A stretch of 64,000 nucleotides of DNA from an uncultured Candidatus Berkelbacteria bacterium (GTDB lineage: Bacteria; Patescibacteriota; UBA1384; UBA12157): the NCBI GenBank assembly GCA_903877885.1, contig CAIRFN010000005.1:17956-81955 (forward strand), in the 5' to 3' direction. A program made the position numbers and the translations under genes. Below the pieces are notes generated by a model. It saw only the letters and a list, made by a program, of their open reading frames with translations. It had not been told where the DNA came from and searched no databases. Below, piece by piece: positions 11,409 to 61,877 of the stretch (position 1 is its first letter; each line of letters opens with the position of its first letter).

Positions 11409-11468
11409 TTAAATTATAGATCGCCACGGTCTGCTGACCTCGCGATGACAATTTTTTTAGATCTATCT

Positions 11469-13145: not shown

Positions 13146-14177
13146 TTAACTCGCTAATTTAAGAACTAATAAGTCGAGGGCCACTTTTGGCTCAACCTGA
13201 CCGGTTTTCATCGCCAAATCGTTTTCCATTAATTCATGGTAGATTTTTTTCAGTTCTATCATATTGTAATTCTTAATTAAATTTAGGCTTTTACCGGCCA
13301 CAAACGGATGCAATCCAGCCCGTTTCGACAGCTCCCACTGCGAATTTACTCCGCGCTCGGCAAAATCCATCGTAATTAACAGGTTCCGATATTGATAAAC
13401 AATCATCGACAAAATATAGAGTTCATTTTCGCCATTATCTAAAAGTCGGTGTAATTCGTATAATGATTTTTTGACGTTTCGACTAGCGACCGCGTCAACC
13501 AGAGCAAAAATATCGCTGGAAGTTTGCGGTTTAACCAAGAGTTCGATATTTTGAACTGTAATAATATTGTCATCCTCGAGCCGGTGTGAGTCTTTATCGA
13601 ACACCGACATCGGGGATCCAGATCCCGGATCCTGAAGCCTTCCGGTCCGGGATGACAGACCTTTAAAAGTTGCAAGTTTGGCAATTTCATTTCCTAACCG
13701 CCACAAATCGGCGCCAACATATTCAAATAATTTTTGAACACCATCAGATGTAATCGTACCATTTAATTTAGCAACTTCTTCGCGAATCCAGGTTTTTGCA
13801 CCTTGTTCATCAAGCGGTTTAAATTCTTGGGTTTTTTGTTTAGCTAATTTTTTGTAAAGCGATGTCCGTTTATCTGGCACGCCTGCTTCAGCAAAAACCA
13901 AAACGGTTGTTTCCGGGACTTTCGGCAAAAATTCGCCGATTTTTTCTTGTTCATCCTTTTTTCCTTCTAACAACAAATTTTCAATAATCACCAGCCGACT
14001 TTTGGCTAAAAATGGATAGGCCAAAATCTGCCGAATCATAAAATCGGCTTTAGTCGTCTTGCCGTCAATCACCGCTAAATTTGTGTCCCCTAAAGACGCG
14101 GAAATATACTTTTCCTTCATCTCTTTAATTTTTTGTTTTAGTCTGTAAGTATCCTCGCCAAAAAGAAATAATATCAT
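13146..14177 (-). CDS. holA: DNA polymerase III delta subunit-like (HolA)
   Basis: 343 aa. N-terminus MILFLFGEDTYRLKQKIKEMKEKY and overall delta-subunit layout. It carries an in-frame family-A element at 13568-13657. Confidence 0.65.
   Translation of the reverse strand: MILFLFGEDTYRLKQKIKEMKEKYISASLGDTNLAVIDGKTTKADFMIRQILAYPFLAKSRLVIIENLLLEGKKDEQEKIGEFLPKVPETTVLVFAEAGVPDKRTSLYKKLAKQKTQEFKPLDEQGAKTWIREEVAKLNGTITSDGVQKLFEYVGADLWRLGNEIAKLATFKGLSSRTGRLQDPGSGSPMSVFDKDSHRLEDDNIITVQNIELLVKPQTSSDIFALVDAVASRNVKKSLYELHRLLDNGENELYILSMIVYQYRNLLITMDFAERGVNSQWELSKRAGLHPFVAGKSLNLIKNYNMIELKKIYHELMENDLAMKTGQVEPKVALDLLVLKLAS
13568..13657. repeat. Family-A MITE-like palindromic element (tgtcatcctcgag...gggatgaca) inserted in frame in holA
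   Basis: Termini tgtcatcctcgagccgg.. and ..ccggtccgggatgaca. Translated through as ..RLQDPGSGSPMSVFDKDSHRLEDDN.. Confidence 0.8.
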
Positions 14178-15637: not shown

Positions 15638-15691
15638 CCAACACGCGGTGGCCTCCACCGCTTTTTAAATTCTGGCAATCTTCTAACAAAT

Positions 15692-15727
15692 AAGGACAGT
15701 CCTTCAGCGCGTTAAAGGACTGTCCTT
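15692..15727. repeat. REP-like palindromic element, copy 2
   Basis: aaggacagtcctt-cagcgcgtta-aaggactgtcctt followed by ttt. Located just after the fabH-like gene. Confidence 0.8.
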
Positions 15728-15735
15728 TTATTCTT

Positions 15736-15826
15736 TGTCATCCTCGAGCCGGAGGGTACTCCGACATCAAGGATCCAGAAAATTCCTGGATCCCAGATCC
15801 TGAAGCCTTCCAATCTGGGATGACAT
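15736..15826. repeat. Family-A MITE-like element, intergenic copy
   Basis: tgtcatcctcgagccggagggtactccgacatcaaggatccag + aaaattc + ctggatcccagatcctgaagccttccaatctgggatgaca. Confidence 0.8.
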
Positions 15827-15831: not shown

Positions 15832-16803
15832 TTAAAACAAGCTCAACCGATTATCTTCCCTATTAGATTTATGAATTCTGGGAATTAAGGATTTAAACCC
15901 GAGGTCTAAAAAGAGTTTTTCCACTTTTTCCTTATCAAAATCGTGAATTTTGGCATCTGATAATTTAAACTCGATCGGCGCATCTGAAACAATTTGTGAC
16001 AATTTTTGGCTTAAATATGCTTGATCTTTGTACTCAATTAATAAGGAAAGAACTTTTTTGGAAATTTTTAACTTTTCTGATAGTTTTTGAATTTTGTCAT
16101 CCTGAGCTTGCGAAGGAACTTTTTTAGATTCTTCACTACCGTTCAGAATGACATTATATAAATTATCAAGTGTTTGAAATTTCTCGATTAGATTGCTGGC
16201 CGTTTTTTCACCTATTCCTGGAACTCCGGGAATATTGTCCGAAGAGTCGCCTTTGAGCGCCTTTAGGTCAACAAATTGACTTGGATTAACATTATACCGC
16301 TCTTTGACTTTATTCTCATCGTACATGACCGCTTGCTGGACACCGCGCGCCATCGAATAAACCTTTGTACTCTGATCAATCAGCTGAAAAGTATCCGAGT
16401 CACCTGTCACAATAATGTTTTCAATTCCACTATCTTCTATCCCCTTTATTATCGTTGCGGCAATATCTTCGCCTTCATATCCTTCGGCCGAAACAATCGG
16501 AATATTCATGGTCTCCAACACTTTTTTGCAATATTGAATTTGCGGCACCAAATCATCAGGCATCGGTTTGCGCGTCGCTTTGTAATCAACATATTCCAAG
16601 TGCCGTTTGGTTGGTTTGGGTAAATCAAAACAAGCCACCAAGTATTCAGGTTGGAGTTCTTTAATGGCAGCAAGTAAAGCCGAGGCAAAACCATAGGCCG
16701 CGTTAATCGGATGACCATCGCGCGTCAAAGTCGGCGGAATACCATAGAATGCCCTAAAAATTAAAGCAAACGAATCAATTAAAACCAAACGATTTTTTAT
16801 CAT
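15832..16803 (-). CDS. 5'-3' exonuclease (Pol I N-terminal-type / FEN-like)
   Basis: 323 aa. N-terminus MIKNRLVLIDSFALIFRAFYGIP with the acidic metal-binding clusters typical of 5'-nuclease domains. It carries an in-frame family-B element. Confidence 0.85.
   Translation of the reverse strand: MIKNRLVLIDSFALIFRAFYGIPPTLTRDGHPINAAYGFASALLAAIKELQPEYLVACFDLPKPTKRHLEYVDYKATRKPMPDDLVPQIQYCKKVLETMNIPIVSAEGYEGEDIAATIIKGIEDSGIENIIVTGDSDTFQLIDQSTKVYSMARGVQQAVMYDENKVKERYNVNPSQFVDLKALKGDSSDNIPGVPGIGEKTASNLIEKFQTLDNLYNVILNGSEESKKVPSQAQDDKIQKLSEKLKISKKVLSLLIEYKDQAYLSQKLSQIVSDAPIEFKLSDAKIHDFDKEKVEKLFLDLGFKSLIPRIHKSNREDNRLSLF
16095..16153. repeat. Family-B palindromic element (tgtcatcctgagc...gttcagaatgaca) in frame in the 5'-exonuclease gene
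   Basis: tgtcatcctgagcttgcgaaggaacttttttagattcttcactaccgttcagaatgaca. Translated as ..PSQAQDDKIQ.. Confidence 0.8.
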
Positions 16804-19258: not shown

Positions 19259-20217
19259 TTCCTTCTCATCTTCTCGATAAACTTAAATAAATTATACCAG
19301 CATTTGCTGTAAATAATATCCCAACTTCCGACTGTTTGGTATTTGATGCCGCCAAATTGCTCTTTAAATTGAGTGATACCGGCGTATTTATGTTTTTTGT
19401 CATTCTGAGCTTGCGAAGAATCTATAGATCCTTCACTGCGTTCAGGATGACTATTAAATGGCGCTACTGCTAATAAATCATAAAACTTGCAACCTTTGGC
19501 TTTGGCGATTTTAATCGCCTCCCAGTGCATTAGGTATGGTGCCATTACATTGCGATATTTTGATAAGCTTGCTCCATAAAGATAAGTCGCCATTTCGTCA
19601 AAAAAAGTAAAAATTCCAGCCGCCACGGGAATATCATTATATTTAACAACCAAAAGTTCAACGGAATTTATTTCTTTTAAGGTTTGAATTAATTTAGCAA
19701 AATATTTTTTTGGTCTGATTTGAAAACCATCTCGGCTAGCCGTTTCCTTAAAAATTTCGTAAAATTCGTCAATATTTTGTGATTTTTCAACAACTAAACC
19801 ATGTTTTTGCCCTACTTTAATATTATATCGGCCTTTTGGTTTCATTTTGGCCAAAATTTCTTCTTCAGATTTTGTTATATCCACAATTTGACGATATTCT
19901 GGCTGAATCTCTTCAAACGATTTAATGAGATGATTTTTCTTCAAAATTGTTGTAATTTTTCCACCAAAAACCGAGTTTTTTTGATTCAAAAAATCTAACC
20001 TTAAAAATATCGAGTGGGATTTTTTAGAAATTTCTTTAATTTTTGGTAAAAATTTGGGGAAATTGATTTTGTAAAAATCGACTTCCGGCGAGTACAGAAA
20101 ACTAAAACCCAGTGGTAATGGTTTTTCCAAAACTAAAACCTCATCAACCCAATGGGCTTTCCAACCTTGACTTTCGCGAAGCGCAGCCCATTCCTTTGTT
20201 TGTAGAATTGATTTCAT
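19255..20217 (-). CDS. FemAB-family peptidoglycan interpeptide aminoacyltransferase (FemX-like)
   Basis: 320 aa. N-terminus MKSILQTKEWAALRESQGW and overall Fem-family layout. It overlaps murE by 4 nt. It carries an in-frame family-B element. Confidence 0.65.
   Translation of the reverse strand: MKSILQTKEWAALRESQGWKAHWVDEVLVLEKPLPLGFSFLYSPEVDFYKINFPKFLPKIKEISKKSHSIFLRLDFLNQKNSVFGGKITTILKKNHLIKSFEEIQPEYRQIVDITKSEEEILAKMKPKGRYNIKVGQKHGLVVEKSQNIDEFYEIFKETASRDGFQIRPKKYFAKLIQTLKEINSVELLVVKYNDIPVAAGIFTFFDEMATYLYGASLSKYRNVMAPYLMHWEAIKIAKAKGCKFYDLLAVAPFNSHPERSEGSIDSSQAQNDKKHKYAGITQFKEQFGGIKYQTVGSWDIIYSKCWYNLFKFIEKMRRK
19398..19452. repeat. Family-B palindromic element in frame in the femX-like gene
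   Basis: tgtcattctgagcttgcgaagaatctatagatccttcactgcgttcaggatgac. Translated as ..HPERSEGSIDSSQAQND.. Confidence 0.8.
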
Positions 20218-20246: not shown

Positions 20247-21482
20247 ATGATGAAAGAAAAAATGAAAATATTAGCCATTGAATCAAGTTGTGACGAAACC
20301 GCGGCCGCCGTTATTGAAAATAATAACGGTGAGATTAAGATACATTCAAACATAATTTCTAGTCAAATTGATATTCACAAACAATTTGGTGGCGTTTTTC
20401 CCGAAATTGCTTCGCGTGCTCATGCCGAAAATATTATTCCGGTGATTAAAGAATCTTTAATTAATAGTATTGATGATGTCGATCTAATCGCTGTCACTGA
20501 CGGACCAGGTTTAATCGGTTCGCTTTTGGTTGGCGTCAATGTAGCCAAAACCTTGAGTTTCGCAAATAATATTCCGATCTTACCAATCAACCACTGGCTT
20601 GGTCATATCTATTCCTGTTTTACCGATGATAAAAATTTACCTCGATTCCCTCTTCTCGCCCTTATTGTTTCCGGTGGTCATACTGGTTTGGTGTTGATGA
20701 AAAGTCATACCGAGTACATTCAAATCGGCGCTACACTTGATGACGCCGCTGGCGAAGCTTTTGATAAAGTAGCAAAACTCTTAGAATTAGGTTATCCTGG
20801 CGGACCGGCGATTTCAGCTGCGGCTGAAGAATATAAAAAAGAATGTCATTCCGGTCCAGATGGTAATACTGGAACCGGAATCCAGGCCTGGATTCCCGAT
20901 GTCGAGTTGCCACTCGGCTCGAGAATGACAATTTCCTTTCCGAGAGCCATGCTTAATTCTAAAGATTATAATTTAATGTCAATTAAATTTCCGCGGGCCA
21001 TGATGCAATCAGGGAACTATAATTTCTCATTTTCAGGGTTAAAAACTTCTGTACTAAACAAAGTTCGAACTTTAACTGAAAATTGGAAATTGAGAACTGA
21101 AAATTTTGCCCCCGTAGTTGCCTATGAATTTCAACAATGCGTCATTGATATTTTAATTGGTAAAACTTTGAAAGCGGCTGAAGAATTTAAGCCAAAATCA
21201 ATTCTTCTTTGCGGCGGCGTTTCAGCAAATAAGGAATTAAGAGAACAAATGAAAAAAGCTATTTTGTCATTCCGGACCCCTCCTGTCATTCCGGACCGGT
21301 TGGCAACAGGATCCGGAATCCAGGAAAAAACGAATGACAAGATTAATTTTTTCTGTCCGCCCATCGAATTAACCGGCGATAACGCGGCCATGATCGGTAT
21401 TGCCGCAGCCTATCAAATCAACGCTGGCGTTAAACCAACTACATATAATAATGTAAATGCGAACTCAAATTTGAAATTGTAA
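20247..21482 (+). CDS. tsaD: tRNA N6-adenosine threonylcarbamoyltransferase TsaD (Kae1/Gcp family)
   Basis: (M)KILAIESSCDETAAAVIEN.. N-terminus with the His metal site. At 411 aa it is longer than typical, because of two in-frame element insertions plus a 17-codon tandem duplication. An alternative start exists at the ATG at 20262. Confidence 0.9.
   Translation: MMKEKMKILAIESSCDETAAAVIENNNGEIKIHSNIISSQIDIHKQFGGVFPEIASRAHAENIIPVIKESLINSIDDVDLIAVTDGPGLIGSLLVGVNVAKTLSFANNIPILPINHWLGHIYSCFTDDKNLPRFPLLALIVSGGHTGLVLMKSHTEYIQIGATLDDAAGEAFDKVAKLLELGYPGGPAISAAAEEYKKECHSGPDGNTGTGIQAWIPDVELPLGSRMTISFPRAMLNSKDYNLMSIKFPRAMMQSGNYNFSFSGLKTSVLNKVRTLTENWKLRTENFAPVVAYEFQQCVIDILIGKTLKAAEEFKPKSILLCGGVSANKELREQMKKAILSFRTPPVIPDRLATGSGIQEKTNDKINFFCPPIELTGDNAAMIGIAAAYQINAGVKPTTYNNVNANSNLKL
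20844..20930. repeat. Family-A MITE-like element in frame in tsaD (copy 1)
   Basis: tgtcattccggtccagatggtaatactggaaccggaatccag gc ctggattcccgatgtcgagttgccactcggctcgagaatgaca. Translated as ..CHSGPDGNTGTGIQAWIPDVELPLGSRMT.. Confidence 0.8.
21263..21340. repeat. Family-A MITE-like element in frame in tsaD (copy 2, with a duplicated left terminus)
   Basis: ttgtcattccggacccctcc tgtcattccggaccggttggcaacaggatccggaatccag gaaaaaacgaatgacaa. Translated as ..ILSFRTPPVIPDRLATGSGIQEKTNDK.. Confidence 0.75.
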
Positions 21483-21888: not shown

Positions 21889-24039
21889 ATGCAAGAATTA
21901 CCATCAAATTACAATTATAAAGAAACTGAAGACAAAATTTATGCGCTGTGGGAAGAAGCCGGCGCGTTTAAACCAGTTATTGATCCTAATCAAAAACCAT
22001 ATACGATTGTGATTCCGCCACCAAATGTGACTGGTTCTCTTCATATGGGTCATGCTTTAAATAACACAATTCAAGATATTTTAATTCGTCGCTCTCGGAT
22101 GCGTGGCGTGCCAACTCTATGGATTCCCGGAACTGATCATGCCGGTATTGCTACTCAAAATGTGGTGGAAAAAAAGTTGGCTAAAGAAGGCAAAACTCGT
22201 CAAGAACTTGGGCGCGAAGAGTTCACCAAAGAAGTTTGGGATTGGGTTGATCAATATGGCAACACTATTATTGGACAGCTCAAGAAAATGGGTTGTTCTT
22301 GCGATTGGTCCAGACAGCGTTTTACCATGGATGAAGGCTATTCAGAAGCGGTTAAAGTCGCGTTCAAAAATTACTATGATAAGGGTTATATTTATCAAGG
22401 TGAACGAGTGATCAACTGGTGTACCCGTTGTCAAACTGCCTTATCTGATATCGAAGTCGAACATATTGATCAAAACGCTAAACTATATTTTTTTAAATAT
22501 GATAAAAATTTTCCGATCACCATTGCCACTACGCGACCAGAGACAAAGCTTGGCGATACAGGTGTAGCGGTCAATCCGAAAGACAAAAGATATCAGGATT
22601 ACATTGGTAAAACTTTCAAGGTTAATTTTTGCGGTGTCGACCGCGAGATTCGGGTTTTTGCTGACATTAGTATTGATATAACCTTTGGCACTGGCGCCGT
22701 CGGAGTCACTCCAGCGCATTCTTTGGTTGACTATGAAATGGCCGAAAAAAATGGCTTGGATATTATTAAAGTGATTGATCAATATGGGAAAATGACCAAA
22801 GAAGCGGGAACAGAATTTGAAGGTTTGAAAGCAACTGAAGCGCAAGCCAAAGTCATCGAAATGTTGGAAAAAGCTGGGCTGATGGAAAAAGTGGAAGAAA
22901 TCCAAAACGCGATCAGTGTGTGTTATCGCTGTAATCGACCGATTGAGCCTCAACCGTCAAAACAATGGTTTTTAAAGATGTCGGAATTAGCAAAACCAGC
23001 GATTGAAGCGGTTAAATCTGGTCAAATTAAATTCACACCAGACCGTTGGACCAAAGTTTATTTAGACTGGATGGAAAATTTGCGCGACTGGTGCATTTCT
23101 CGCCAAATCTGGTGGGGGCACACCATTCCAATTGAAGGCGAAACTGATGTTTTGGACACTTGGTTTTCGTCAGCCTTGTGGCCGTTTGCCACACTTGGTT
23201 GGCCCAATAAAACTGAAGACCTAAAATATTTTTATCCGACCACCACACTTTCCACTGCCCGCGATATTATTTATCTGTGGGTGGCACGAATGATTTTTTC
23301 AGGGCTTGAATTTACCAACGAAATTCCATTTTCACAGGTTTATATTCATCCAACGGTTTTCAATAAAGAAGGTAAACGCATGTCCAAATCTTTGGGCACC
23401 GGCGTCGATCCTTTGGAACTGATCGAGAAATACGGTGCCGATGCCACGCGATTTGGTCTTACCTATATTAATACCGGGATTCAAGATTTGAAATTTGACG
23501 AAGAAGCTATTGGTGCTGGCAAAAAATTTGCCAATAAGTTGTGGAATATCACCAGATTCATGTTGATGAGCATTTGTCATTCCGGTCCGGATGGCTCCGG
23601 AACCGGAATCCAGGAAAATGATAATCTGGATTCCAGATCAGGTTGCCAACCAGTCTGGAATGACAAGATGGAACCAAGAACTGAAGCCGATAAAATCATT
23701 CTTGAAAAACTTAATGCCGTTATTAAATCAACTGACAAAAATCTTGATGAATTTAAATTTGGCCAAGCGGCGCATGATTTGTATGATTTCGTCTGGCACG
23801 ATTTGGCCGACGTATATATAGAAGAAAGCAAAGTGACCGCGAACGGTCATCCCGAGCCGAAGTCCGGCGAGGGAACCCCTGATTTTTCAGTATTACTTTA
23901 TGTAATAGTAACTTCGATTAAACTTTTGCACCCGATTATGCCGTTTGTAACAGAAGAAATCTGGCAAAAACTCTACGAAGATAAATTAGTTGATGAAAGA
24001 ATGCTGATTACGGCAAAATGGCCAAAAGCACAAGAATAG
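21889..24039 (+). CDS. valS: Valyl-tRNA synthetase (compact form)
   Basis: PPPNVTGSLHMGHAL HIGH region, KMSKS (GKRMSKSLG) and anticodon-binding region. Carries an in-frame family-A element at 23575-23665. Confidence 0.9.
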   Translation: MQELPSNYNYKETEDKIYALWEEAGAFKPVIDPNQKPYTIVIPPPNVTGSLHMGHALNNTIQDILIRRSRMRGVPTLWIPGTDHAGIATQNVVEKKLAKEGKTRQELGREEFTKEVWDWVDQYGNTIIGQLKKMGCSCDWSRQRFTMDEGYSEAVKVAFKNYYDKGYIYQGERVINWCTRCQTALSDIEVEHIDQNAKLYFFKYDKNFPITIATTRPETKLGDTGVAVNPKDKRYQDYIGKTFKVNFCGVDREIRVFADISIDITFGTGAVGVTPAHSLVDYEMAEKNGLDIIKVIDQYGKMTKEAGTEFEGLKATEAQAKVIEMLEKAGLMEKVEEIQNAISVCYRCNRPIEPQPSKQWFLKMSELAKPAIEAVKSGQIKFTPDRWTKVYLDWMENLRDWCISRQIWWGHTIPIEGETDVLDTWFSSALWPFATLGWPNKTEDLKYFYPTTTLSTARDIIYLWVARMIFSGLEFTNEIPFSQVYIHPTVFNKEGKRMSKSLGTGVDPLELIEKYGADATRFGLTYINTGIQDLKFDEEAIGAGKKFANKLWNITRFMLMSICHSGPDGSGTGIQENDNLDSRSGCQPVWNDKMEPRTEADKIILEKLNAVIKSTDKNLDEFKFGQAAHDLYDFVWHDLADVYIEESKVTANGHPEPKSGEGTPDFSVLLYVIVTSIKLLHPIMPFVTEEIWQKLYEDKLVDERMLITAKWPKAQE
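23575..23665. repeat. Family-A MITE-like element in frame in valS
   Basis: tgtcattccggtccggatggctccggaaccggaatccag...ctggattccagatcaggttgccaaccagtctggaatgaca. Translated as ..CHSGPDGSGTGIQENDNLDSRSGCQPVWNDK.. Confidence 0.8.
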
Positions 24040-24074: not shown

Positions 24075-24451
24075 TGTCATTCCAGACCGGCCGGAGGCAG
24101 GATCTGGAATCCAGAATAAAATGAATAATTATTATGTGTATATTTTGACTAGCAGAAGAAACGGCACTTTATATATTGGCGTAACTAATGATCTGATTAA
24201 AAGAATATGGGAACATAAAAACCATAGTAAAAAAGGATTTACAGAAAAATATAACATTTGCCAATTGATATACTTTGAGCAAACTAATAATATAAACTCC
24301 GCTATTAATAGAGAAAAACAATTAAAATCATGGAATAGAAAATGGAAACTTGACTTAATTGAGAAAGTCAATCCTGATTGGAAAGATTTATATCAAGAAT
24401 TGTTGTAACTGGATTCCCGATGTCGGATGCCATCCGACTCGAGAATGACAA
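24075..24451 (+). mobile_element. Full-length family-A element carrying a GIY-YIG nuclease ORF between its two terminal modules
   Basis: Left module tgtcattccagaccggccggaggcaggatctggaatccag (24075-24114). ORF 24121-24408. Right module ctggattcccgatgtcggatgccatccgactcgagaatgaca (24410-24451). The short MITE copies (e.g. 38811-38904) are these two modules joined directly. Confidence 0.75.
24121..24408 (+). CDS. GIY-YIG nuclease family protein (UPF0213/YhbQ-like, about 95 aa)
   Basis: ..YYVYILTSRRNGTLYIGVTNDLIKRIWEHKN.. with the GIY...YIG motifs. The start is trimmed to the ATG at 24121. The track frame is open from 24061 through the left terminal module. Confidence 0.85.
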   Translation: MNNYYVYILTSRRNGTLYIGVTNDLIKRIWEHKNHSKKGFTEKYNICQLIYFEQTNNINSAINREKQLKSWNRKWKLDLIEKVNPDWKDLYQELL

Positions 24452-31046: not shown

Positions 31047-31086
31047 AATCAACTGGATTTGACAGATTATTCCCCCTTGACAACAG

Positions 31087-31115
31087 GGGAGTTTTGTGGT
31101 ATATTTATATGTTCT
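31087..31115 (+). promoter_or_regulatory. Near-consensus promoter TTGACA, 17-bp spacer, extended TGgTATATT
   Basis: ccttgacaacaggggagttttgtggtatatt. It sits within a weak cccc/gggg hairpin and drives the GC-rich gene at 31279. A second TTGACA lies at 31069. Confidence 0.5.
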
Positions 31116-32296: not shown

Positions 32297-32311
32297 AAAT
32301 ACTTAAAAATA

Positions 32312-32348
32312 GATTCCGGATCCTGTCGCCAACCGGTCCGGAATGACA
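32312..32348. repeat. Family-A solo half-module
   Basis: gattccggatcctgtcgccaaccggtccggaatgaca. Confidence 0.65.
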
Positions 32349-34311: not shown

Positions 34312-34350
34312 TTGCCTCCTTACTTTACCTTTCTAGCATAGATTAACCTC

Positions 34351-34379
34351 TTGACAAATGTCAAATTATATGGTATATT
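34351..34379 (+). promoter_or_regulatory. Near-consensus promoter whose -35 lies in the palindrome TTGACAAATGTCAA. 17-bp spacer, extended TGgTATATT
   Basis: cctcttgacaaatgtcaaattatatggtatatt. It shares the CTCTTGACAAAT(A)GTCAA motif with the promoter at 36780. Confidence 0.55.
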
Positions 34380-34448
34380 ACGATGTTATTGCTAGAAGAA
34401 TATTTTAGCAATTTAGTATATTAAAAATCAAGCTTAAGGAGAGGAAAA

Positions 34449-36763: not shown

Positions 36764-36833
36764 TGTCAAGAGAAAGCTCTTGACAAATAGTCAACAATGT
36801 AGTATAGTTGGTTGTTATCTTCCGGAAGATAAC
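36764..36833 (+). promoter_or_regulatory. Promoter plus operator complex: a TGTCAAGA-n6-TCTTGACA palindrome overlapping the -35, TTGACA, 17-bp spacer, TATAGT, then a perfect 20-bp palindrome gttatcttccggaagataac
   Basis: tgtcaagagaaagctcttgacaaatagtcaacaatgtagtatagt... The palindrome at 36814-36833 sits at about +5 to +25. Confidence 0.55.
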
Positions 36834-37741: not shown

Positions 37742-37752
37742 ATACAGACCAA

Positions 37753-37788
37753 AAGGACAGTCCTTCAGCGCGTTAAAGGACTGTCCTT
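37753..37788. repeat. REP-like palindromic element, copy 3
   Basis: aaggacagtcctt-cagcgcgtta-aaggactgtcctt tt. It is followed by a ttgataccagatacc motif. Confidence 0.8.
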
Positions 37789-37839
37789 TTGGATAATCTG
37801 ACACTTGATACCAGATACCAAATGCTATATACTTGACCC

Positions 37840-38810: not shown

Positions 38811-38904
38811 TGTCATTCCAGACCGGACGGCGTCAGGATCTGGAATCTAGGATAATTGTTTCTGGATTCCCGATGTCGGATTGCCATCCGACTCGGGAAT
38901 GACA
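38811..38904. repeat. Family-A MITE-like element, intergenic reference copy
   Basis: tgtcattccagaccggacggcgtcaggatctggaatctag gataattgttt ctggattcccgatgtcggattgccatccgactcgggaatgaca. The whole element is a long imperfect palindrome. Confidence 0.85.
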
Positions 38905-38921: not shown

Positions 38922-40070
38922 TTATTTATTAACTTCTTTCTTCAGTTCTTCCACTTTATCCGTTCTCTCCCAAGGTAAATCTAATTCTGGTCTACCGAAA
39001 TGGCCATAGGCGGCAATTTTTTGGTAGATTGGTTTTCGAAGATCTAAGGCTTGGATAATCATCCCTGGTCGTAAATCAAAAACTTTACTCACCGCTTGAG
39101 CGATTTTATCGTCTTCAATGGTGCCAGTACCAAACGTATCAATTCGCACCGACATTGGTTCAGCTCGACCGATGGCATAAGCAATCTGCACTTCACAGCG
39201 TTCGGCTAATTTTGCGGCAACGATATTCTTGGCCACCCATCTGGCCGCATAGCTACCCGACCGATCAACTTTACTCGGATCTTTTCCAGAGAAACAACCG
39301 CCACCGTGACGCGCATAGCCACCATAAGTATCAACAATAATTTTGCGGCCGGTCAGTCCAGTATCACCTTGCGGCCCACCAATCACAAACCGACCGGTGG
39401 TGTTGACATAGTAGTTTGTATTTTGAAGCAAGGATTTAGGGATAACTTTTTCAATTACTTTCTCGATAATTTCTTTTTTTAAGATCGATGTTTTAATATT
39501 TTCATCATGTTGTGCCGCAATTAAAACCGATTCGATGCGGACTGGTTTGTCGCCATCATATTCAACTGTAACCTGGCTTTTGCCGTCTGGTCGCAAGCCT
39601 TTGACAATCCCCTTTTTTCGAACTTCAGCCAAGCGTTGGCAAAGTTTGTGAGCCAAAACAATTGGCAAAGGCATTAATTCTTTGGTTTCGCGACAAGCAT
39701 AACCAAACATCAAACCTTGATCACCGGCGCCTAGATTTTCCAAGTCTTCGACCAAAGGACAGTCCTTTTGTTCCTTTAAGGACTGTCCTTTACTAAACGC
39801 ATCAACACCCTGTGCAATATCGGCTGATTGTTCCTTAACCGCCACCATTACACCGGAAGTTTCCCAGTGAAAACCATATTCGGCATTTGTATAGCCAATT
39901 TGTTTAATGACGTTGCGAGCGATTTTCGGAATATCGACATATGTTTTAGTGGTAATTTCTCCAGCGATAATACAAACGCCGTTGGTCAGCAATGTTTCGC
40001 AAGCGACTCGTCCTTGCGGATCGTCAGTTAAAATTGCATCGAGTACCGCATCACTAATCTGATCAGCCAT
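38922..40070 (-). CDS. metK: S-adenosylmethionine synthetase
   Basis: [35 protein letters not shown] and the rest of the canonical MetK sequence. Carries an in-frame REP-like insertion at 39765-39800 (..[17 protein letters not shown]..). Confidence 0.95.
39765..39800. repeat. REP-like palindromic element inserted in frame inside metK
   Basis: aaggacagtcctt-ttgttccttt-aaggactgtcctt. It adds about 12-16 residues relative to the conserved MetK loop before GAGDQG. Confidence 0.8.
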
Positions 40071-40183: not shown

Positions 40184-40277
40184 TGTCATTCCAGACCGGA
40201 TGGCATCAGGATCTGGAATCCAGAGTTAATTATTTCTGGATTCTTGATGTCGGAGTACCCTCCGGCTCGAGAATGAC
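40184..40277. repeat. Family-A MITE-like element in the metK 5' leader, between the riboswitch terminator and the start codon
   Basis: tgtcattccagaccggatggcatcaggatctggaatccag...ctggattcttgatgtcggagtaccctccggctcgagaatgaca. Confidence 0.8.
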
Positions 40278-40292
40278 ATAAAAAAACAAAAA

Positions 40293-40412
40293 TCACCGCA
40301 AGCGGTGAAATATATAAAAACATCTTTCCCGCAAGGGGTCGGAGGTAGCACCTAAATTAATGGGTTGCTGGTGGATCATCGGGCCGAATCCCTCACCACA
40401 CTCTTGATATTA
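40293..40412 (-). ncRNA. SAM-I (S-box) riboswitch with an intrinsic terminator, upstream of metK
   Basis: Minus-strand read: AUCAAGAGUGUGGUGAGGGAUUCGGCCCGAUGAUCCACCAGCAACC...GGUGCUACCUCCGAC. This matches the conserved SAM-I core AGAGnGGnGGAGGGAnnGGCCCGAUGAnnCCnnGCAACC...GGUGCUA. It is followed by a terminator tcaccgcttgcggtga plus a T-run at 40280-40308. Confidence 0.8.
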
Positions 40413-40528
40413 AAATTAATTTTTAACTAAATTTATCATATTATAACCATCTAACTTTTGTCAAACTCTTGCCTGGAAACAATTTTTGCTTTAAGATGTA
40501 AATATTAAATTTATATTTTAGGAGCAAA

Positions 40529-43614: not shown

Positions 43615-45129
43615 ATGAGTAATTACAACATTGTTGAAGAACTAAAAAAAGAGATTATGGATTTTGACACTAACGCCAAAGAAGAATCTGCTGGCGAAGT
43701 AGCCGAAATCGGTGACGGTATTGCTAAAATTTACGGCCTTCGTGATGCCAAAAACGGCGAACTTCTAACCATTCATACTTCCACCTCCGAGGTGGCCGCA
43801 ATGGTTTTAAACCTTGAAGAAACCACTATCGGCGCCATTATTTTGGGCGATTACAAAAAAATTCAAGCTGGTGATAAAGTCAGTACCACCGGAAATGTGG
43901 CTGAAATTCCTGTTTCCGAGGAAATTATCGGTCGTGTCGTTGATCCACTCGGCGTTCCACTTGATGGCAAGGCTGATATCAAAGCTGTTAAATCAATGCC
44001 AATCGAAAAAGTCGCGCCTGGCGTTATTACTCGACTGGGCGTTTCTGTGCCGCTTCAAACCGGTATTAAAGCAATTGATGCTCTGATTCCGATTGGTCGC
44101 GGTCAACGCGAACTCATTATTGGCGATCGCGGCACAGGGAAAACCGCCATCGCCATTGATACTATTATTAACCAAAAAAATCTGCCAAAAGAAAACAGAC
44201 CGATTTGTATTTATGTGGCTATTGGTCAAAAGAAATCCAAAGTTGCCCGCATCGCCGCGATTTTGGAAGAACACGGCGCCATGGAATACACCACCATTGT
44301 TTTGGCCGGCGCTTCAGATCCAGCGCCGCTATCTTACATTGCCCCATATTCTGGTTGCGCTATTGGCGAATATTTTATGGAACAAGGCAAAGATGTTTTG
44401 ATTGTTTTTGATGATTTAACCAAGCACGCTTGGGCTTATCGCCAAGTTTCTTTGTTACTTCGCCGCCCACCAGGTCGCGAAGCTTATCCAGGCGATGTTT
44501 TCTATCTCCACTCTCGATTATTGGAACGCTCTGCTCGTTTAAACAAAGATTTTGGCGGCGGCTCAATGACAGCTTTACCAATCATCGAAACCCAAGCGGG
44601 CGATGTTTCCGCTTATATTCCAACCAATGTTATTTCCATTACCGACGGCCAGATTTTCTTGGAATCCGATCTTTTTTACCAAGGTATTCGACCAGCTTTA
44701 AACATCGGTATATCGGTATCACGTGTCGGCGGCGCCGCTCAAATTAAAGCGATGAAAAAAGTCGCGGGAAAATTAAAATTGGAAATGGCTCAATATCGTG
44801 AACTGGCAGCTTTCGCTCAATTTGCATCAGATTTGGATGCCGATACCAAAAAAACCATTGAGCGTGGCAAACGCATGACCGAGGTGATGAAACAGCCACA
44901 ATATCAACCAATGCCAGTCGAAGAACAAGTGGTGATTTTGTACGCGGTTTCCAACGGTTATTTGGATGGTTATGATGTTACTGAAATTCAAGATATTGCC
45001 AAGGAATTGACCATCAAAGCCCAAAGCGAGGGCAAAGCCATTTTAGCCGAAATCCGCGAAAAATCAGTTATTGACGAAGCCTTAGAAGCCAAACTAAAAT
45101 CGTTTTTAGAAAAAAATACGAAAAAATAA
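43615..45129 (+). CDS. atpA: F0F1 ATP synthase subunit alpha
   Basis: GDRGTGKT Walker A plus the complete conserved alpha-subunit sequence. Confidence 0.95.
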
Positions 45130-45136
45130 TTTTAAA

Positions 45137-45527
45137 TGTCATCCTCGAGCCGGTTTGAGCTTTGTCGAAAACCGACATCAAGGATCCATCAAAATAAAAA
45201 GCTATTTCGTTTACATTTTAGCCAGTCAGAAAAACGGAACATTATATATCGGTGTTACAAATGATATTATAAGAAGGATTTGGGAGCACAAAAATAAAGC
45301 TATTCAAGGTTTTACAGATAAATATAGAATTGATAAATTAGTTTATTTCGAAGAAACACCAGATATTAATTCAGCTATTAAGAGAGAAAAACAATTAAAA
45401 TTATGGAGCCGTTCCTGGAAAATAGATTTGATAGAAAAGAATAATCCTGATTGGAAAGATTTATATCAAGATTTGTTATAATGGATCCTTGATGTTGGAG
45501 CGCTTCGCTTCCAACTCGAGGATGACA
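45137..45527 (+). mobile_element. Second full-length family-A element carrying a GIY-YIG ORF between its terminal modules, inserted between atpA and atpG
   Basis: Left module tgtcatcctcgagccggtttgagctttgtcgaaaaccgacatcaaggatcca. ORF to 45481. Right module tggatccttgatgttggagcgcttcgcttccaactcgaggatgaca. Confidence 0.75.
45155..45481 (+). CDS. GIY-YIG nuclease family protein (second copy)
   Basis: ..YFVYILASQKNGTLYIGVTNDIIRRIWEHKN..REKQLKLWSRSWK.. The frame is open from a TTG inside the left terminal module. There is no ATG near the conserved N-terminus, so the start is uncertain. Confidence 0.75.
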   Translation: MSFVENRHQGSIKIKSYFVYILASQKNGTLYIGVTNDIIRRIWEHKNKAIQGFTDKYRIDKLVYFEETPDINSAIKREKQLKLWSRSWKIDLIEKNNPDWKDLYQDLL

Positions 45528-45548
45528 AAAAAAGATAAAAACTTTAGT

Positions 45549-45611
45549 ATGTCATTCTCGAGCCGAATGGTAATTCGACCTGCCTGACGGCAGGCAGGCA
45601 TCAAGAATCCA
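45549..45611. repeat. Family-A solo module with an embedded 20-nt palindrome (cctgcctgacggcaggcagg)
   Basis: tgtcattctcgagccgaatggtaattcgacctgcctgacggcaggcaggcatcaagaatccaa. Confidence 0.7.
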
Positions 45612-45617
45612 ACTGTA

Positions 45618-45659
45618 TGTCATTCTCGAGTCGGATGGGATCCGACATCAAGAATCCAG
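45618..45659. repeat. Family-A solo module, tandem direct copy
   Basis: tgtcattctcgagtcggatgggatccgacatcaagaatccag. Confidence 0.7.
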
Positions 45660-45712
45660 ATAAATAAAAAAGGCCAATGCGTAAACGCAAAGGCCGAAAT
45701 CCGGTCTTAAAG

Positions 45713-45958
45713 CTACTTTCGGAAAAACATAGCTATCAGACCAACAATTATGCTACCGATATAAGCGATTGGATGTTGTGCAAAACCGAGAGTCAACATC
45801 CATGAAATCGCTCCACTTGCACCGACGGCGGTAGATAGACCAGAATCTGGACCCATAACAGCCAGAAAGAAAAGGAAGCTTAATATCAGAGTTGCGATCA
45901 TCAGTGATGCGTACATTAACGTAGCAACACCAAAGAATCTTCCTATTCGGTAAGTCAT
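45713..45958 (-). CDS. Small hydrophobic membrane protein (81 aa), antisense to and inside the atp operon
   Basis: Intact ORF with 2-3 TM helices. RBS ggagggaacgaaATG on the minus strand. Weak terminator-like hairpin plus a T-run downstream of its stop. Confidence 0.4.
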   Translation of the reverse strand: MTYRIGRFFGVATLMYASLMIATLILSFLFFLAVMGPDSGLSTAVGASGAISWMLTLGFAQHPIAYIGSIIVGLIAMFFRK

Positions 45959-46025
45959 TTCGTTCCCTCCAACAAAAATCTATCAGAAGTATACCATAAT
46001 AAGCATTAAAAGTCAATAGAATATT

Positions 46026-47066
46026 ATGCCAAGTACACAAGAATTTCGTAGAAGAATTAAATCGGTCAGTTCGACCAAACAGATTACCAAAGCAATGGAA
46101 ATGATTGCTTCTATTAAGATGCAAAAATCTGTCAAAACTATTGCCCAGGCTCGAGCCTATATCCAAAACGCATGGAATATTTTACATTTACTGTCTGAAA
46201 AAATATTAAGCGACGATCACGCGCTGATTAATCCTAAAGATCATGCCAAAAAAACAGCCGTGATTTTAATTACTTCTGACCGCGGTTTATGCGGTTCATA
46301 TAATTCAGAAGTGATCAAGAAGCTAACATCATTCAAAAATGTCATCCTCGAGACGGAGGGTACTCCGACATCAAGGATCCAGGACCTGGATTCCAGATCT
46401 GGTTCCCAACCAGTCTGGAATGACAATACGATTGATATCATTGCCATCGGTAAAGTCGGCGCCGCGTTTGTTAACAGATATAAAATCGGCAAACTGATCG
46501 CTGAATTTAAAGGTTTTGAAAATAATATTTCCGTTGAAGATGTCATTCCGATTTCCAAACTGACGAATGGTGAATATATGGCTGGAAATTATGACAAAGT
46601 GGTAGTGATTTATTCTCATTTCATTTCTTCGCTTAAACAAGTCCCGGTCGTCAAACAAATTTTGCCAATTGTCGAAGATCATATCGATCATCCGGAATTA
46701 TGGGAAGGAAATAATGTCATCCTCGAGCCGGAGGGTACTCCGACATCAAGGATCCAGGACCTGGATTCCCGATCCGGAGGCCATCCGGTCGAGAATGACA
46801 AAAACAATACTGAATACAAATTTGAACCCAATCCTGATGAAGTTTTTGATGGCGTCTTGCGACAAATTTTACGCACCCAAATTTTCGGTGCCATTTTAGA
46901 AGCCAACGCTTCTGAACATTCGGCCCGTATGGTGGCCATGAAAAATGCCACCGACAATGCCACCGATTTAGTTGATGAATTAAAATTAGTATATAACAGC
47001 ATCCGCCAAGGAAACATCACTTCGGAAATCGCCGAAATTAGTGGTGCCGCCGAGGCGATGAAATAA
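46026..47066 (+). CDS. atpG: F0F1 ATP synthase subunit gamma (lengthened by two in-frame MITE insertions)
   Basis: Conserved N-terminus (..RRRIKSVSSTKQITKAMEMIASIKMQK..) and C-terminus (..NSIRQGNITSEIAEISGAAEAM). At 346 aa it is longer than typical. Confidence 0.9.
   Translation: MPSTQEFRRRIKSVSSTKQITKAMEMIASIKMQKSVKTIAQARAYIQNAWNILHLLSEKILSDDHALINPKDHAKKTAVILITSDRGLCGSYNSEVIKKLTSFKNVILETEGTPTSRIQDLDSRSGSQPVWNDNTIDIIAIGKVGAAFVNRYKIGKLIAEFKGFENNISVEDVIPISKLTNGEYMAGNYDKVVVIYSHFISSLKQVPVVKQILPIVEDHIDHPELWEGNNVILEPEGTPTSRIQDLDSRSGGHPVENDKNNTEYKFEPNPDEVFDGVLRQILRTQIFGAILEANASEHSARMVAMKNATDNATDLVDELKLVYNSIRQGNITSEIAEISGAAEAMK
46340..46425. repeat. Family-A MITE-like element in frame in atpG (copy 1)
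   Basis: tgtcatcctcgagacggagggtactccgacatcaaggatccag gac ctggattccagatctggttcccaaccagtctggaatgaca. Translated as ..VILETEGTPTSRIQDLDSRSGSQPVWND.. Confidence 0.8.
46715..46800. repeat. Family-A MITE-like element in frame in atpG (copy 2)
   Basis: tgtcatcctcgagccggagggtactccgacatcaaggatccag gac ctggattcccgatccggaggccatccggtcgagaatgaca. Translated as ..VILEPEGTPTSRIQDLDSRSGGHPVEND.. Confidence 0.8.
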
Positions 47067-47077: not shown

Positions 47078-48500
<1,423 letters not shown>

Positions 48501-48501
48501 G

Positions 48502-48711
48502 ATGCTAAACTTCATAAACAGCTATTGGATTTTAATAATTCCAGTAATTACCTTAATTATTGGTTTGCTATTTCTATCTATTGGCACCAAGAATAACAAT
48601 AAAAATTTAATTATATTTTCAAAAATTATTAGTATTTTTAGTTTTGTTATAATCTGTTATTTAGTATTTGTGACTTTTATGATTTACTTAAGTATGAAAC
48701 CTTTGAATTAA
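48502..48711 (+). CDS. Small hydrophobic protein (69 aa) between atpD and atpC
   Basis: Two predicted TM helices and very AT-rich. Possibly a real small membrane protein or a spurious ORF. Confidence 0.3.
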   Translation: MLNFINSYWILIIPVITLIIGLLFLSIGTKNNNKNLIIFSKIISIFSFVIICYLVFVTFMIYLSMKPLN

Positions 48712-48712: not shown

Positions 48713-49123
48713 ATGAAAACATTTAATCTAAAATTAATTTCTCCAACTGGTATTAAATACGAAGCCTCGGCAACGGCGGCTTTTTTGCCGACTGCCGAAG
48801 GTACGATTGAAATTTTGCCAGATCACATGCCGCTGATTGCGCTTTTGTCACCCGGAGAAATTATTATTAAAAATAATGCTGAAACTAAAAGTCTTGTCAC
48901 CGATGGCGGCTTAGTGGAGATTGCCGATAACGTGGTTAAGATTTTGGCTGATGAAGCTGAAGAAGCGCATAACCTAGATGAGATGAAAATTTTGGAAGCC
49001 AAAAAAGCGGCTGAAAATCGTTTGGCTAATGCCAAAGACGATGTTGAACATGCCGACGCCGCCGCGCATTTAGAAAAACAATTATCAAAGTTGACGTTCC
49101 TTAAACGTCGTAGACATAAATAA
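48713..49123 (+). CDS. atpC: F0F1 ATP synthase subunit epsilon
   Basis: N-terminal beta-sandwich (..LKLISPTG..ASATAAFLPTAEGTIEILPDHMPLIALL..) plus a C-terminal helical hairpin. Confidence 0.85.
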   Translation: MKTFNLKLISPTGIKYEASATAAFLPTAEGTIEILPDHMPLIALLSPGEIIIKNNAETKSLVTDGGLVEIADNVVKILADEAEEAHNLDEMKILEAKKAAENRLANAKDDVEHADAAAHLEKQLSKLTFLKRRRHK

Positions 49124-49124: not shown

Positions 49125-49170
49125 TGTCATCCTGAGCGTAGCGAAGGATCTATCATAACGCGTCGCAAGC
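49125..49170. repeat. Family-B element, degenerate or truncated copy
   Basis: tgtcatcctgagcgtagcgaaggatctatcataacgcgtcgcaagc. Left terminus is intact; the right terminus is missing. Confidence 0.55.
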
Positions 49171-49558: not shown

Positions 49559-49649
49559 TGTCATTCTCGACCGGACGGCCTCCGGATCGGGAATCTAGAA
49601 ATATAATCCTGGATCCCAGATCCTGTTTGACAACCGGTCTGGGATGACA
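49559..49649. repeat. Family-A MITE-like element, intergenic
   Basis: tgtcattctcgaccggacggcctccggatcgggaatctag...cctggatcccagatcctgtttgacaaccggtctgggatgaca. Confidence 0.8.
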
Positions 49650-61437: not shown

Positions 61438-61460
61438 AAAGTAGACGGTATCCGACAATA

Positions 61461-61495
61461 AAGGACTGTCCTTCAACGCGCTAAAGGACAGTCCT
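61461..61495. repeat. REP-like palindromic element, copy 5
   Basis: aaggactgtcctt-caacgcgcta-aaggacagtcctt tttt. Followed by atacttgatactaaatcctaaatactagatac. Confidence 0.8.
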
Positions 61496-61540
61496 TTTTA
61501 AATACTTGATACTAAATCCTAAATACTAGATACTAATTTT

Positions 61541-61813: not shown

Positions 61814-61823
61814 CTTTACCTAA

Positions 61824-61859
61824 AAGGACAGTCCTTCAGCGCGTTAAAGGACTGTCCTT
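61824..61859. repeat. REP-like palindromic element, copy 6
   Basis: aaggacagtcctt-cagcgcgtta-aaggactgtcctt t. Located between convergent genes. Confidence 0.8.
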
Positions 61860-61877
61860 TATTGTTTGTGATTTTTC

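Follow-up and report, generated by a model that had tools for sequence, protein, structure and literature searches.

In-frame hairpin doublets in the ATP synthase gamma gene of a Candidatus Berkelbacteria bacterium and their probable relation to Ssn nuclease systems

Hairpin repeats and GIY-YIG genes of the window

The Ssn proteins are nucleases associated with NTS/SRM hairpin repeats, including the dRS3/NTS repeats of Neisseria (Chenal et al., Nat Commun 2025, PMC11893778). Members are recognised by homology to N. meningitidis SsnA (tblastn E < 1e-10) or by assignment to cd10448, and are single-domain GIY-YIG proteins of ~94 residues with a catalytic Tyr, Tyr and Glu; in SsnA the residues Y6, Y17 and E64 are essential. 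Ssn cuts single-stranded DNA a few nucleotides 5' of its motif in a strand-specific manner, and the nucleases act hydrolytically and are not known to transfer strands. In Neisseria they modulate natural transformation, the only biological role demonstrated for them. Rickettsia is listed among the SRM-rich genomes, and a homologue from W. pipientis was assayed in the same study (PMC11893778). Rickettsia genomes are also the source of the Rickettsia palindromic elements (RPEs), short palindromes that lie in frame in many housekeeping genes (Ogata et al. 2000 Science, summarised in PMC10969869).

The DNA analysed here, referred to as the window, is a stretch of 64 kb from an uncultured Candidatus Berkelbacteria bacterium, in which nhmmer identifies 27 confident half-units of a hairpin repeat at 13 places (Table 1). 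A half-unit comprises ~40 nt arranged as TGTCAT-stem-loop-ATCCAG, and a convergent pair of half-units forms a doublet. The hairpins measure 40-54 nt, have two-tier stems and occur mostly as tight convergent doublets of 86-95 nt. The half-units are oriented, with conserved non-palindromic flanks and covarying stems, and are associated with an ssnA gene. The hairpins are kept by compensatory substitutions: in the type-B half-unit 93% of the cells are paired, with 5 double-change pairs, a score reached in 0 of 500 shuffles, and in the type-A half-unit 95.8% are paired, likewise with 5 pairs that carry double changes, while the slid-pairing controls of both types drop to 7-59%. The repeats correspond to no RNA family already described. 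At the gathering threshold the SAM riboswitch is the sole Rfam match in the whole window, and a search of positions 45100-46850 at a permissive E-value returned chance-level matches only, introns being absent.

The greater length and the two tiers of the hairpins keep the published SRM search pattern, HGTCWYN(0-2)YYVSBRHN(0-5)WNVSBRGN(0-2)RNCYNB (PMC11893778), from recognising them: it has no strict match in the 64-kb window and a single match once the loop is relaxed to 20 nt, and thus misses this divergent subfamily. Its outer signatures HGTCWY (as TGTCAT) and RNCYNB (as ATCCAG) are present in the half-units. The half-units are most probably divergent Ssn-related motifs of the SRM/NTS class.

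Table 1. Position and strand of the atpG gene, the ssnA units and the hairpin repeats in the 64-kb window.
Feature	Position	Strand	Description
atpG, F1 ATP synthase gamma subunit	46026-47066	+	346 aa, intact ORF, host of both doublets
atpG doublet 1	46340-46425	+	86 nt; A-half 46340-46382 (+), spacer GAC, B-half 46386-46425 (-); read as VILETEGTPTSRIQDLDSRSGSQPVWND; gamma residues ~105-133 (site 1)
atpG doublet 2	46715-46800	+	86 nt; A-half 46715-46757 (+), spacer GAC, B-half 46761-46800 (-); read as VILEPEGTPTSRIQDLDSRSGGHPVEND; gamma residues ~231-258 (site 2)
hairpin-ssnA-hairpin, between atpA and atpG	45137-45527	+	left hairpin 45137-45189, ORF 45155/45188-45481, right inverted hairpin 45481-45527
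Second hairpin-ssnA-hairpin	24075-24450	+	376 nt; left hairpin 24075-24114, ATG 24121, stop 24406-24408, right inverted hairpin 24409-24450 abutting the stop codon
holA in-frame doublet	13568-13657	-	holA (DNA polymerase III delta), 13146-14177 (-); read as SSRTGRLQDPGSGSPMSVFDKDSHRLEDD
tsaD in-frame doublet	20844-20930	+	tsaD, 20247-21482 (+); read as CHSGPDGNTGTGIQAWIPDVELPLGSRMT
tsaD second in-frame element	21265-21339	+	partly degenerate; read as SFRTPPVIPDRLATGSGIQEKTND
valS in-frame doublet	23575-23665	+	valS, 21889-24039 (+); read as CHSGPDGSGTGIQENDNLDSRSGCQPVWND
Intergenic doublet	15736-15825		A-half 100% identical to 46715-46757
Intergenic doublet	38811-38904		stop codons in all six frames
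Intergenic doublet	40184-40278		adjoins SAM riboswitch
Intergenic doublet	49559-49649		3' of atpC
Solo type-B half-unit	32309-32348	-	identified by nhmmer
Two tandem intergenic half-units	45550-45659	both +	first one broken by GC-rich insert

Two GIY-YIG genes of the window are each bracketed by inverted hairpins (TGTCAT-hairpin / hairpin-ATGACA), an arrangement also found in two relatives (L002 and L086), in which the ssnA unit occupies a different intergenic position within the atp operon. Both proteins (95 and ~97 aa) match Pfam PF01541 over nearly their full length, the one in the atp operon with E = 1.9e-16, the flanking half-units of this unit being identified by nhmmer. The 95-residue product of 24121-24405 and that of 45188-45478 share 71% identity. 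In an alignment of the GIY-YIG proteins the columns of Y7, Y18, R28 and E65 (REKQLK) are invariant, and both window proteins show the single-domain form and the catalytic residues that define Ssn. At least 585 relatives were found, of which the best 80, from many phyla, are 57-72% identical; the Wolbachia homologue shares 61% identity with the window protein. TGTCAT.../...ATGACA flanks occur on both sides of 39 of these 80 loci, and the strict published SRM pattern is found within 150 nt of 49 (61%), on both sides in 21. NCBIfam holds no model specific to Ssn-type GIY-YIG proteins, and searches of NCBIfam and the PDB with the window protein gave sub-threshold matches only (a group I intron endonuclease model; UPF0213 protein BH0048, 1zg2). 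On the basis of domain, residues and flanks, the two genes probably belong to the Ssn family, whose members cut ssDNA at specific sites, and their products are predicted nucleases.

The atpG doublets and their place in the gamma subunit

The atpG gene lies in a complete atp operon, flanked by atpA and atpD, and residues 4-345 of its product are covered by the Pfam family ATP-synt (PF00231, E = 7.5e-82). A sequence-only reading of this DNA had described two in-frame copies of a repeat in the gene, with near-identical inserted peptides; the coordinates, frame and peptides all agree with that description, and so does the homology to the repeat family of 27 half-units. The two doublets are 88% identical over 92 nt, and a 54-nt core occurs twice, its copies agreeing at every base except the N position, whereas 100 shuffles gave an expectation of 0. 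Doublet 1 is predicted to fold as a hairpin or cruciform with z = -4.1, and doublet 2 has z = -5.1. Identical DNA recurs in a scaffold from an independent assembly, and 10 contigs encode exactly this protein, so that an assembly artefact is excluded.

The same reading held that the copies share one reading frame relative to the element. This is correct for atpG, in which both doublets start at codon position 3 and use frame +1 of the element, but it is not a general property of the element, since holA, tsaD and valS use other frames and orientations. Altogether the window holds six in-frame copies in four essential genes per 64 kb (atpG, holA, tsaD and valS), and further ones are present in relatives; two other organisms (L091 and L087) have a doublet at the equivalent valS position. 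Surviving genic copies preserve the frame and are stop-free, with open frames in 3 of 6 versus 0-2 for intergenic copies, which is consistent with selection for open frames. Doublets are rarer in genes than the coding density of 87% predicts (P = 0.002-0.009).

The core of atpG is under strong purifying selection, with dN/dS values of 0.054-0.077 against orthologues, so that the pseudogene interpretation, which the sequence-only reading had named as grounds for rejection, does not apply to this intact ORF. The insert shared with a relative behaves differently from the core: its pN of 0.21 is about equal to its pS of 0.20, versus a core pS of 0.74 (Fisher P = 4e-6). The shared insert therefore shows no amino-acid constraint, yet as DNA it has changed far less than the synonymous sites of the host. 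The reading of the element as a selected peptide module was rejected in view of its varying reading frame and of pN ≈ pS in the shared insert.

With respect to the gamma structure, the segment encoded by doublet 1 does not align to E. coli gamma and falls between E. coli residues 99 and 104, and in the predicted structure residues 113-130 have pLDDT values under 50. Site 2 lies between the final strand of the globular domain (…LLPL/ILPI…) and the conserved …FEPxP segment that opens the C-terminal helix, and is the loop that holds the regulatory insert of spinach chloroplast gamma (PDB 6fkf chain g). In the model both inserts are low-confidence surface loops outside the coiled-coil shaft, in agreement with the surface exposure that had been proposed for them. 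The view that tolerance of such inserts by gamma is remarkable is weakened, because CPR gamma subunits, 292-372 aa in length, are hypervariable in length at both sites and site 2 is the chloroplast insert site.

The two sites differ in occupancy among relatives, as a presence/absence comparison revealed: at site 2 one relative (L002) carries the same element and another (L001) is empty, whereas L085 and L086 have other doublet subfamilies in the same two gamma loops. Copy 1 probably replaces a Cys-rich loop of the nearest relatives, so that at this site the notion of a pure insertion needs qualification. A metagenome scan for an empty site-2 allele of the same species gave 0 matches, a weak null result because the contigs were short and the species rare there; the near relative L089 was present.

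Origin of the inserts and alternative explanations

The earlier reading had called the copies MITEs. The inverted termini TGTCAT…ATGACA of the doublets conform to the terminal inverted repeats of such elements, but the designation is a loose one, since the sequences next to 12 copies revealed neither a target-site duplication nor a conserved target. The doublets may be deletion derivatives of the units whose GIY-YIG genes are bracketed by the same ends; the Ssn protein of these units is a hydrolytic nuclease and not a demonstrated transposase. The atpG inserts are probably selfish DNA of non-coding origin, namely convergent doublets of divergent SRM/NTS hairpins whose ends are shared with the ssnA units. 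The ORF-less doublet has the ~380-nt hairpin-ssnA-hairpin architecture minus its gene, comparable to the relation of REPIN to RAYT or MITE to IS. Such doublets are scattered over the genome; the genic survivors keep the frame, and those of atpG lie in permissive surface loops, where they would be translated as floppy ~28-aa loop peptides that gamma tolerates.

How the units spread can be proposed from the published biochemistry. As Ssn is known to cut 5' of its motif in a strand-specific manner, it would be expected, in single-stranded DNA, to cut at the outer edges of a doublet or of a hairpin-ssnA-hairpin unit, after which host repair or recombination might copy or remove the unit, as a putative mobilisation step. 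A more far-reaching proposal, which we regard as tentative and rather doubtful as a whole, is that the ~380-nt hairpin-ssnA-hairpin unit is among the smallest autonomous bacterial mobile elements, with the doublets as REPIN-like riders, and that the units move when the GIY-YIG enzyme cleaves ssDNA hairpins that have been extruded and the host then repairs the DNA. If this were true, the machinery would repeatedly write loops of 25-30 residues into essential proteins of reduced CPR genomes, among them the gamma loop that became a regulatory switch in chloroplasts; it might also underlie RPEs, and would drive protein-loop innovation in general.

Among the alternatives to a selfish origin, domestication fares best, but we consider it unlikely. 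The doublets would then benefit the host, either as Ssn cleavage sites in and around essential genes that modulate recombination or transformation, a role proposed in Neisseria, or as mRNA structures that tune the atp operon, and selection for their presence in atpG would act on the DNA or RNA. The strong conservation of the insert DNA relative to host synonymous sites and the compensatory changes in the stems point in this direction, but young or gene-converting selfish repeats would give the same signals. Doublets and ssnA genes have entered the atp operon more than once, in several lineages, and NTS repeats in Neisseria cluster non-randomly around important genes (PMC11893778); against this, the close relative L001 does well with empty sites, doublets are depleted in genes overall, and the differing subfamilies and within-loop positions suggest repeated opportunistic insertion.

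Far less probable still is that gamma never carries the extra loops because the inserts are taken out beforehand, whether from the RNA in the manner of an intron, from the DNA by programmed excision or from the protein by intein-like splicing. The elements do form very stable hairpins, with folding energies of -39 to -52 kcal/mol on either strand (z = -4 to -5.6), but they match no Rfam family, introns included, and with 86 nt or 28 aa they are far below the size of an intein or a group I/II intron. In addition, the genic copies are selectively stop-free and frame-preserving and the intergenic ones are not, which would be needless if the segments were removed; homologues have many insert lengths at the same loops, and SsnA does not act on RNA (PMC11893778). 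The intron, intein and excision readings were rejected on these grounds. The least probable alternative is that the window atpG is decaying or redundant while an insert-free second gene does the work: the 64 kb inspected belong to a genome of at least 445 kb, but the window contains no second atpG, the gene is an intact ORF with a core dN/dS of 0.05-0.08 in a complete operon, orthologues in other species have inserts at the same loops, and three other essential genes also carry in-frame doublets.

The finding links two bodies of literature that had been separate, one of which is the 2025 work on Ssn ssDNA nucleases and their hairpin repeats. Hairpin repeats colonise essential genes of a CPR bacterium at high density, and the same gamma and valS loops are struck repeatedly in different lineages. 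Caution is needed in CPR protein annotation and phylogenomics, because repeat-derived segments inflate and distort alignments. It is predicted that the Berkelbacteria Ssn cuts the half-units as ssDNA, that peptides across the insert junctions, and peptides such as NVILETEGTPTSR, IQDLDSR and SGSQPVWNDNTIDIIAIGK, are detectable, and that RPEs may prove to be SRM doublets.

Comparison with known systems

A literature search for GIY-YIG proteins with dispersed repeats and for in-frame palindromes in CPR bacteria yielded nothing relevant beyond the Ssn paper and a MITE review. With the Ssn/SRM system the window shares a single-domain GIY-YIG protein of ~95 aa, inverted hairpin brackets, the 5' (H)GTCAT and the ATCCAG-like 3' flank, many additional hairpin copies dispersed in the genome, and homologues of 57-72% identity (in Wolbachia, Legionella, Nitrospira, CPR bacteria and others) that are flanked by canonical NTS-like motifs. 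It differs in that the hairpins are longer, fail the SRM pattern and are mostly convergent doublets, and the Berkelbacteria Ssn is a candidate nuclease. Moreover, essential genes of the window contain six in-frame copies; neither such insertion nor CPR bacteria appear in PMC11893778.

At site 2 the insert has the same insertion point as the chloroplast/cyanobacterial gamma insert and a similar length (~35 aa in the chloroplast). In chloroplasts the insert is a structured regulatory hairpin of ancient origin that contains Cys, whereas that of the window is recent, repeat-derived, of low model confidence and without peptide-level constraint.

REPIN/RAYT systems likewise have a gene between inverted hairpins, dispersed ORF-less inverted doublets, recognition of ssDNA hairpins and no target-site duplication. 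However, RAYT is an HUH tyrosine transposase (IS200/IS605-like), in contrast to the hydrolytic GIY-YIG nuclease predicted for the window, and REPINs are extragenic, whereas the window doublets also lie in coding loops.

The closest precedent for the in-frame doublets is provided by the Rickettsia palindromic elements. As in RPEs, the window doublets are palindromes in frame in many unrelated protein genes. Both systems affect unrelated housekeeping genes of a reduced genome, with translated extra peptide segments judged compatible with the fold. RPEs are found in Alphaproteobacteria and measure ~100-150 bp, whereas the window doublets belong to a CPR bacterium, measure 86-95 nt and have a candidate cognate Ssn between the same repeats; RPEs and SRMs may nevertheless overlap.

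Hairpin doublets in atpG and the surrounding window

The atpG gene is an intact open reading frame of 346 amino acids with a full-length Pfam ATP-synt match (E = 7.5e-82), and the two repeat stretches that a sequence-only reading had reported in it are present. They share 88% identity over 92 nt, and their 54-nt core occurs exactly twice, with a chance expectation of none. Both copies begin at a third codon base and are therefore read in the same element frame, yielding the peptides that the sequence-only reading had quoted. A 5.8-kb scaffold that was assembled independently, from a different sample, contains identical DNA and the exact gamma protein is encoded by 10 contigs, which rules out an assembly artefact. 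The observation is real and reaches well past atpG.

The 86-nt element is composite: two convergent hairpin half-units with GAC between them. Type-A units have the sequence TGTCATCCTCGAGnCGGAGGGTACTCCGACATCAAGGATCCAG, while type-B units are inverted, with the reverse complement TGTCATTC(C/T)nGACyGG…CCnGATCnGGAATCCAG. A profile search of the window identified 27 confident half-units at 13 places, from 13.5 to 49.7 kb, nearly all forming convergent doublets with their TGTCAT ends facing outward; the intergenic copy at 15736-15778 matches one of the halves of doublet 2 with 100% identity. The family and its hairpins are established, and the stems have the support of covariation: each type shows five stem positions with compensatory double changes, 93-96% of the cells are paired, and the stem covariation score was reached by none of 500 shuffles and collapsed in slid-partner controls. 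Very stable folding is predicted for either strand. The elements match no Rfam family, and no target-site duplication is visible in their flanks. A possible degenerate half-unit within valS (GGTCATCCCGAGCCGAAGTCCGGCGAGGGAACCCC, translated GHPEPKSGEGTPD) suggests that older insertions erode to ordinary coding sequence.

The window also contains a third hairpin-repeat family, TGTCATCCTGAGC..GCGAAGGATC, likewise in convergent doublets, with a solo copy directly 3' of the atpC stop codon; VILSEAG… peptides in other CPR gammas (P0045) resemble its in-frame translations. Terminator-like palindromes (AAAGGACAGTCCTT…AAGGACTGTCCTTT) constitute a separate family found where genes end, and the doublet at 15736 directly abuts one of these palindromes. 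A SAM riboswitch immediately adjoins an intergenic doublet. Two small hydrophobic ORFs in the atp operon gave no Pfam match; one of them, antisense, lies in the gap that separates the ssnA unit from atpG, and in relatives of L001, the locus of the nearest relative, an antisense ORF of 109 aa occupies the equivalent place.

Coordinates of features in the window (and, where indicated, in L001)
Feature	Position	Remarks
atpG doublet 1	46340-46425	site 1
atpG doublet 2	46715-46800	site 2
tsaD-1; tsaD-2	20844-20930; 21265-21339	
Possible degenerate half-unit	23845-23880	valS
Hairpin-GIY-YIG-hairpin unit	24075-24450	376 nt; ATG 6 nt past left hairpin; stop codon abuts right hairpin
Hairpin-GIY-YIG-hairpin unit	45137-45527	in the atpA-atpG spacer, immediately upstream of atpG
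GIY-YIG ORF of the latter unit	45155-45481	
atpF; atpH	42713; 43222	
atpA	43615-45129	
atpG	46026-47066	
atpD	47136-48500	
atpC	48713-49123	
Small hydrophobic ORFs	45713-45958 (-); 48502-48711 (+)	81 and 69 aa
Intergenic doublet	40184-40278	
SAM riboswitch	40317-40413 (-)	RF00162, 57.6 bits
Third hairpin family	16095-16153; 19398-19452; 49125-49150; L001:839-891	
Terminator-like palindromes	11372-11417; 15691-15736; 37752-37797; 39754-39799; 61460-61505; 61823-61868	
Promoter-like repeat	31066-31115; 34340-34389; 36769-36818	three copies; TTGACA … 17 nt … TATAAT-like, conserved surroundings

Hairpin-bracketed GIY-YIG genes and the Ssn family

Two paralogous ORFs in the window, 71% identical, encode single-domain GIY-YIG proteins of ~95 aa, each closely bracketed by inverted half-units. 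The copy upstream of atpG lacks an ATG, its sole in-frame start being a TTG in the left-hairpin loop; its ORF is intact, but expression may be poor or the gene may be in decay. In two related genomes (L002:1589-1983 and L086:3050-3540) the equivalent bracketed GIY-YIG gene occupies the atpG-atpD spacer, a different operon spacer from that in the window, and the units have therefore moved. The spacers of the atp operon look like recurrent landing sites for such genes.

SsnA is a single-domain GIY-YIG protein of 94 aa whose target is a hairpin repeat of 28 nt, called NTS in Neisseria (CGTCATTCCCGCGMAVGCGGGAATCYRG) and, as a wider class, "Ssn-related motifs" (SRM). Binding requires single-stranded DNA and is confined to one strand, and the cut falls a few nucleotides upstream of the motif (Chenal et al. 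2025, PMC11893778). Inverted SRMs typically flank ssnA genes, an arrangement that these authors describe as IS-like and reminiscent of REP/RAYT, and Rickettsia and Wolbachia are among the SRM-rich genomes (PMC11893778). The gene arrangement in the window is exactly that of this system. Intragenic or in-frame copies, and CPR bacteria, go unmentioned in that paper, and likewise in the rest of the literature searched.

A scan of reference genomes revealed at least 585 relatives of the window GIY-YIG protein. The best 80 of these (L005-L084), from a wide range of phyla, among them many CPR groups, Proteobacteria (e.g. Legionella and Wolbachia), Nitrospirae, Bacteroidota, Cyanobacteria and Chloroflexota, are 57-72% identical to it across the whole protein. 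Such identity is unusually high across phyla so distant and suggests frequent horizontal transfer of the Ssn-like protein. Most of the best 80 homologs have (T)GTCATTCC-stem-loop-GGAATCCAG upstream and the inverted motif downstream. With the strict SRM pattern, an SRM is found within 150 nt at 61% of these 80 loci, and on both sides at 26%, mostly in convergent orientation. The association of such genes with SRMs is thus reproduced, and the window proteins may, operationally, be assigned to the Ssn family. The strict pattern has no match in the window itself, where the half-units share the conserved outer signatures of SRMs but have longer two-tier stems; they are a divergent SRM subfamily, missed by the published search.

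Placement of the inserts in the gamma subunit

In a HMMER alignment to solved gamma structures the unaligned parts are exactly the two inserts, which fall within the intervals 99-104 and 193-202 of E. coli gamma. In an AlphaFold model of gamma (mean pLDDT 73.6), the fold of which agrees with bacterial gammas, the inserts appear as low-confidence loops of the globular domain (113-130 and 229-263), and the coiled-coil helices span residues 4-60 (N-terminal) and 270-345 (C-terminal). The location of the inserts in loops is established, and both lie outside the rotor shaft, a point that the sequence-only reading had put forward for checking. By alignment, site 2 is the loop bearing the redox-regulatory insertion of spinach chloroplast gamma (sequence checked against 6fkf chain g), so that this insertion and doublet 2 occupy one loop.

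Among 29 Berkelbacteria and other CPR gammas the length is hypervariable at both sites. In the nearest relative (P0002/L001) site 2 is empty and site 1 holds a Cys-rich loop; P0003/L002 carries at site 2 the same doublet as the window, L085 a different doublet at site 1, and L086, at site 2, a doublet of canonical NTS type. Since two naturally permissive loops hold the inserts, gamma can tolerate them, and this is less remarkable than the sequence-only reading proposed. What is notable is that these loops have been occupied repeatedly.

Where the window has doublet 1, the nearest relatives have the Cys-rich loop (e.g. ECSCDTDTKTCGEYLGSCD, pattern CxCx7-8Cx6C; seen in P0002, P0003, P0004, P0005, P0008, P0011, P0012 and P0036 of the gamma alignment A2). 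This loop could serve gamma in metal binding or redox chemistry, and the window lineage seems to have swapped it for the repeat.

Insertion, selection and relation to known elements

Beyond atpG, in-frame doublets are present in holA, tsaD (two) and valS. The element is read in frame +1 in atpG, +0 in valS and tsaD-1, +2 in tsaD-2 and -2 in holA; these differing frames and orientations rule out the peptide itself as the object of selection. Metagenome contigs of other, related organisms carry a doublet at the valS position of the window in another frame (L091:56-165 and L087:1050-1162), and an amidase-like ORF of 505 aa contains a further one in frame (L092:3892-3975). Genic copies have three of six frames open, versus none to two in intergenic copies, where stops lie mainly within the AT-rich central spacers, and doublets in genes are rarer than the 87% coding density predicts (P = 0.002-0.009). 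Open-frame excess and genic depletion are what insertion leaves behind when a filter then retains stop-free, frame-preserving, tolerable copies. The inserts would then be translated to loop peptides. Their removal before or after translation is less well supported, since frame-preserving, stop-free genic copies argue for translated inserts.

Less support is likewise found for domestication of the doublets to the benefit of the host. In the site-2 insert common to the window and L002, pN (0.21) is close to pS (0.20), and the peptide is therefore without constraint. The DNA of this insert is conserved: its pS of 0.20 compares with 0.74 in the surrounding gene (Fisher P = 4e-6), and the stem differences between the two genomes are compensatory, each agreeing with the intergenic copies of its own genome. 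DNA-level constraint, homogenisation by gene conversion and a recent insertion that hit the same position independently all fit the low synonymous divergence. That atpG is a redundant pseudogene is less well supported, because outside the inserts it is under purifying selection (dN/dS 0.077 versus L001, 0.054 versus L002) and thus functional.

Ssn may mobilise the elements. The published cut position, 5' of the motif and strand-specific, would have both a convergent doublet and a hairpin-ssnA-hairpin unit cut once at either outer edge, the two cuts lying on opposite strands; such cuts would fit the absence of target-site duplications and the sharpness of the TGTCAT…ATGACA borders. GIY-YIG enzymes, however, are hydrolytic, and Ssn is not a known transposase.

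The sequence-only interpretation is partly right; for the elements, which it had called MITEs, the best description is that of in-frame doublets made up of divergent Ssn-related hairpin motifs. The finding joins two literatures and yields testable predictions. The window doublets are a CPR counterpart of the Rickettsia palindromic elements, a neighbouring gene encodes their candidate cognate nuclease, and they extend known kinds of system rather than representing a new one.
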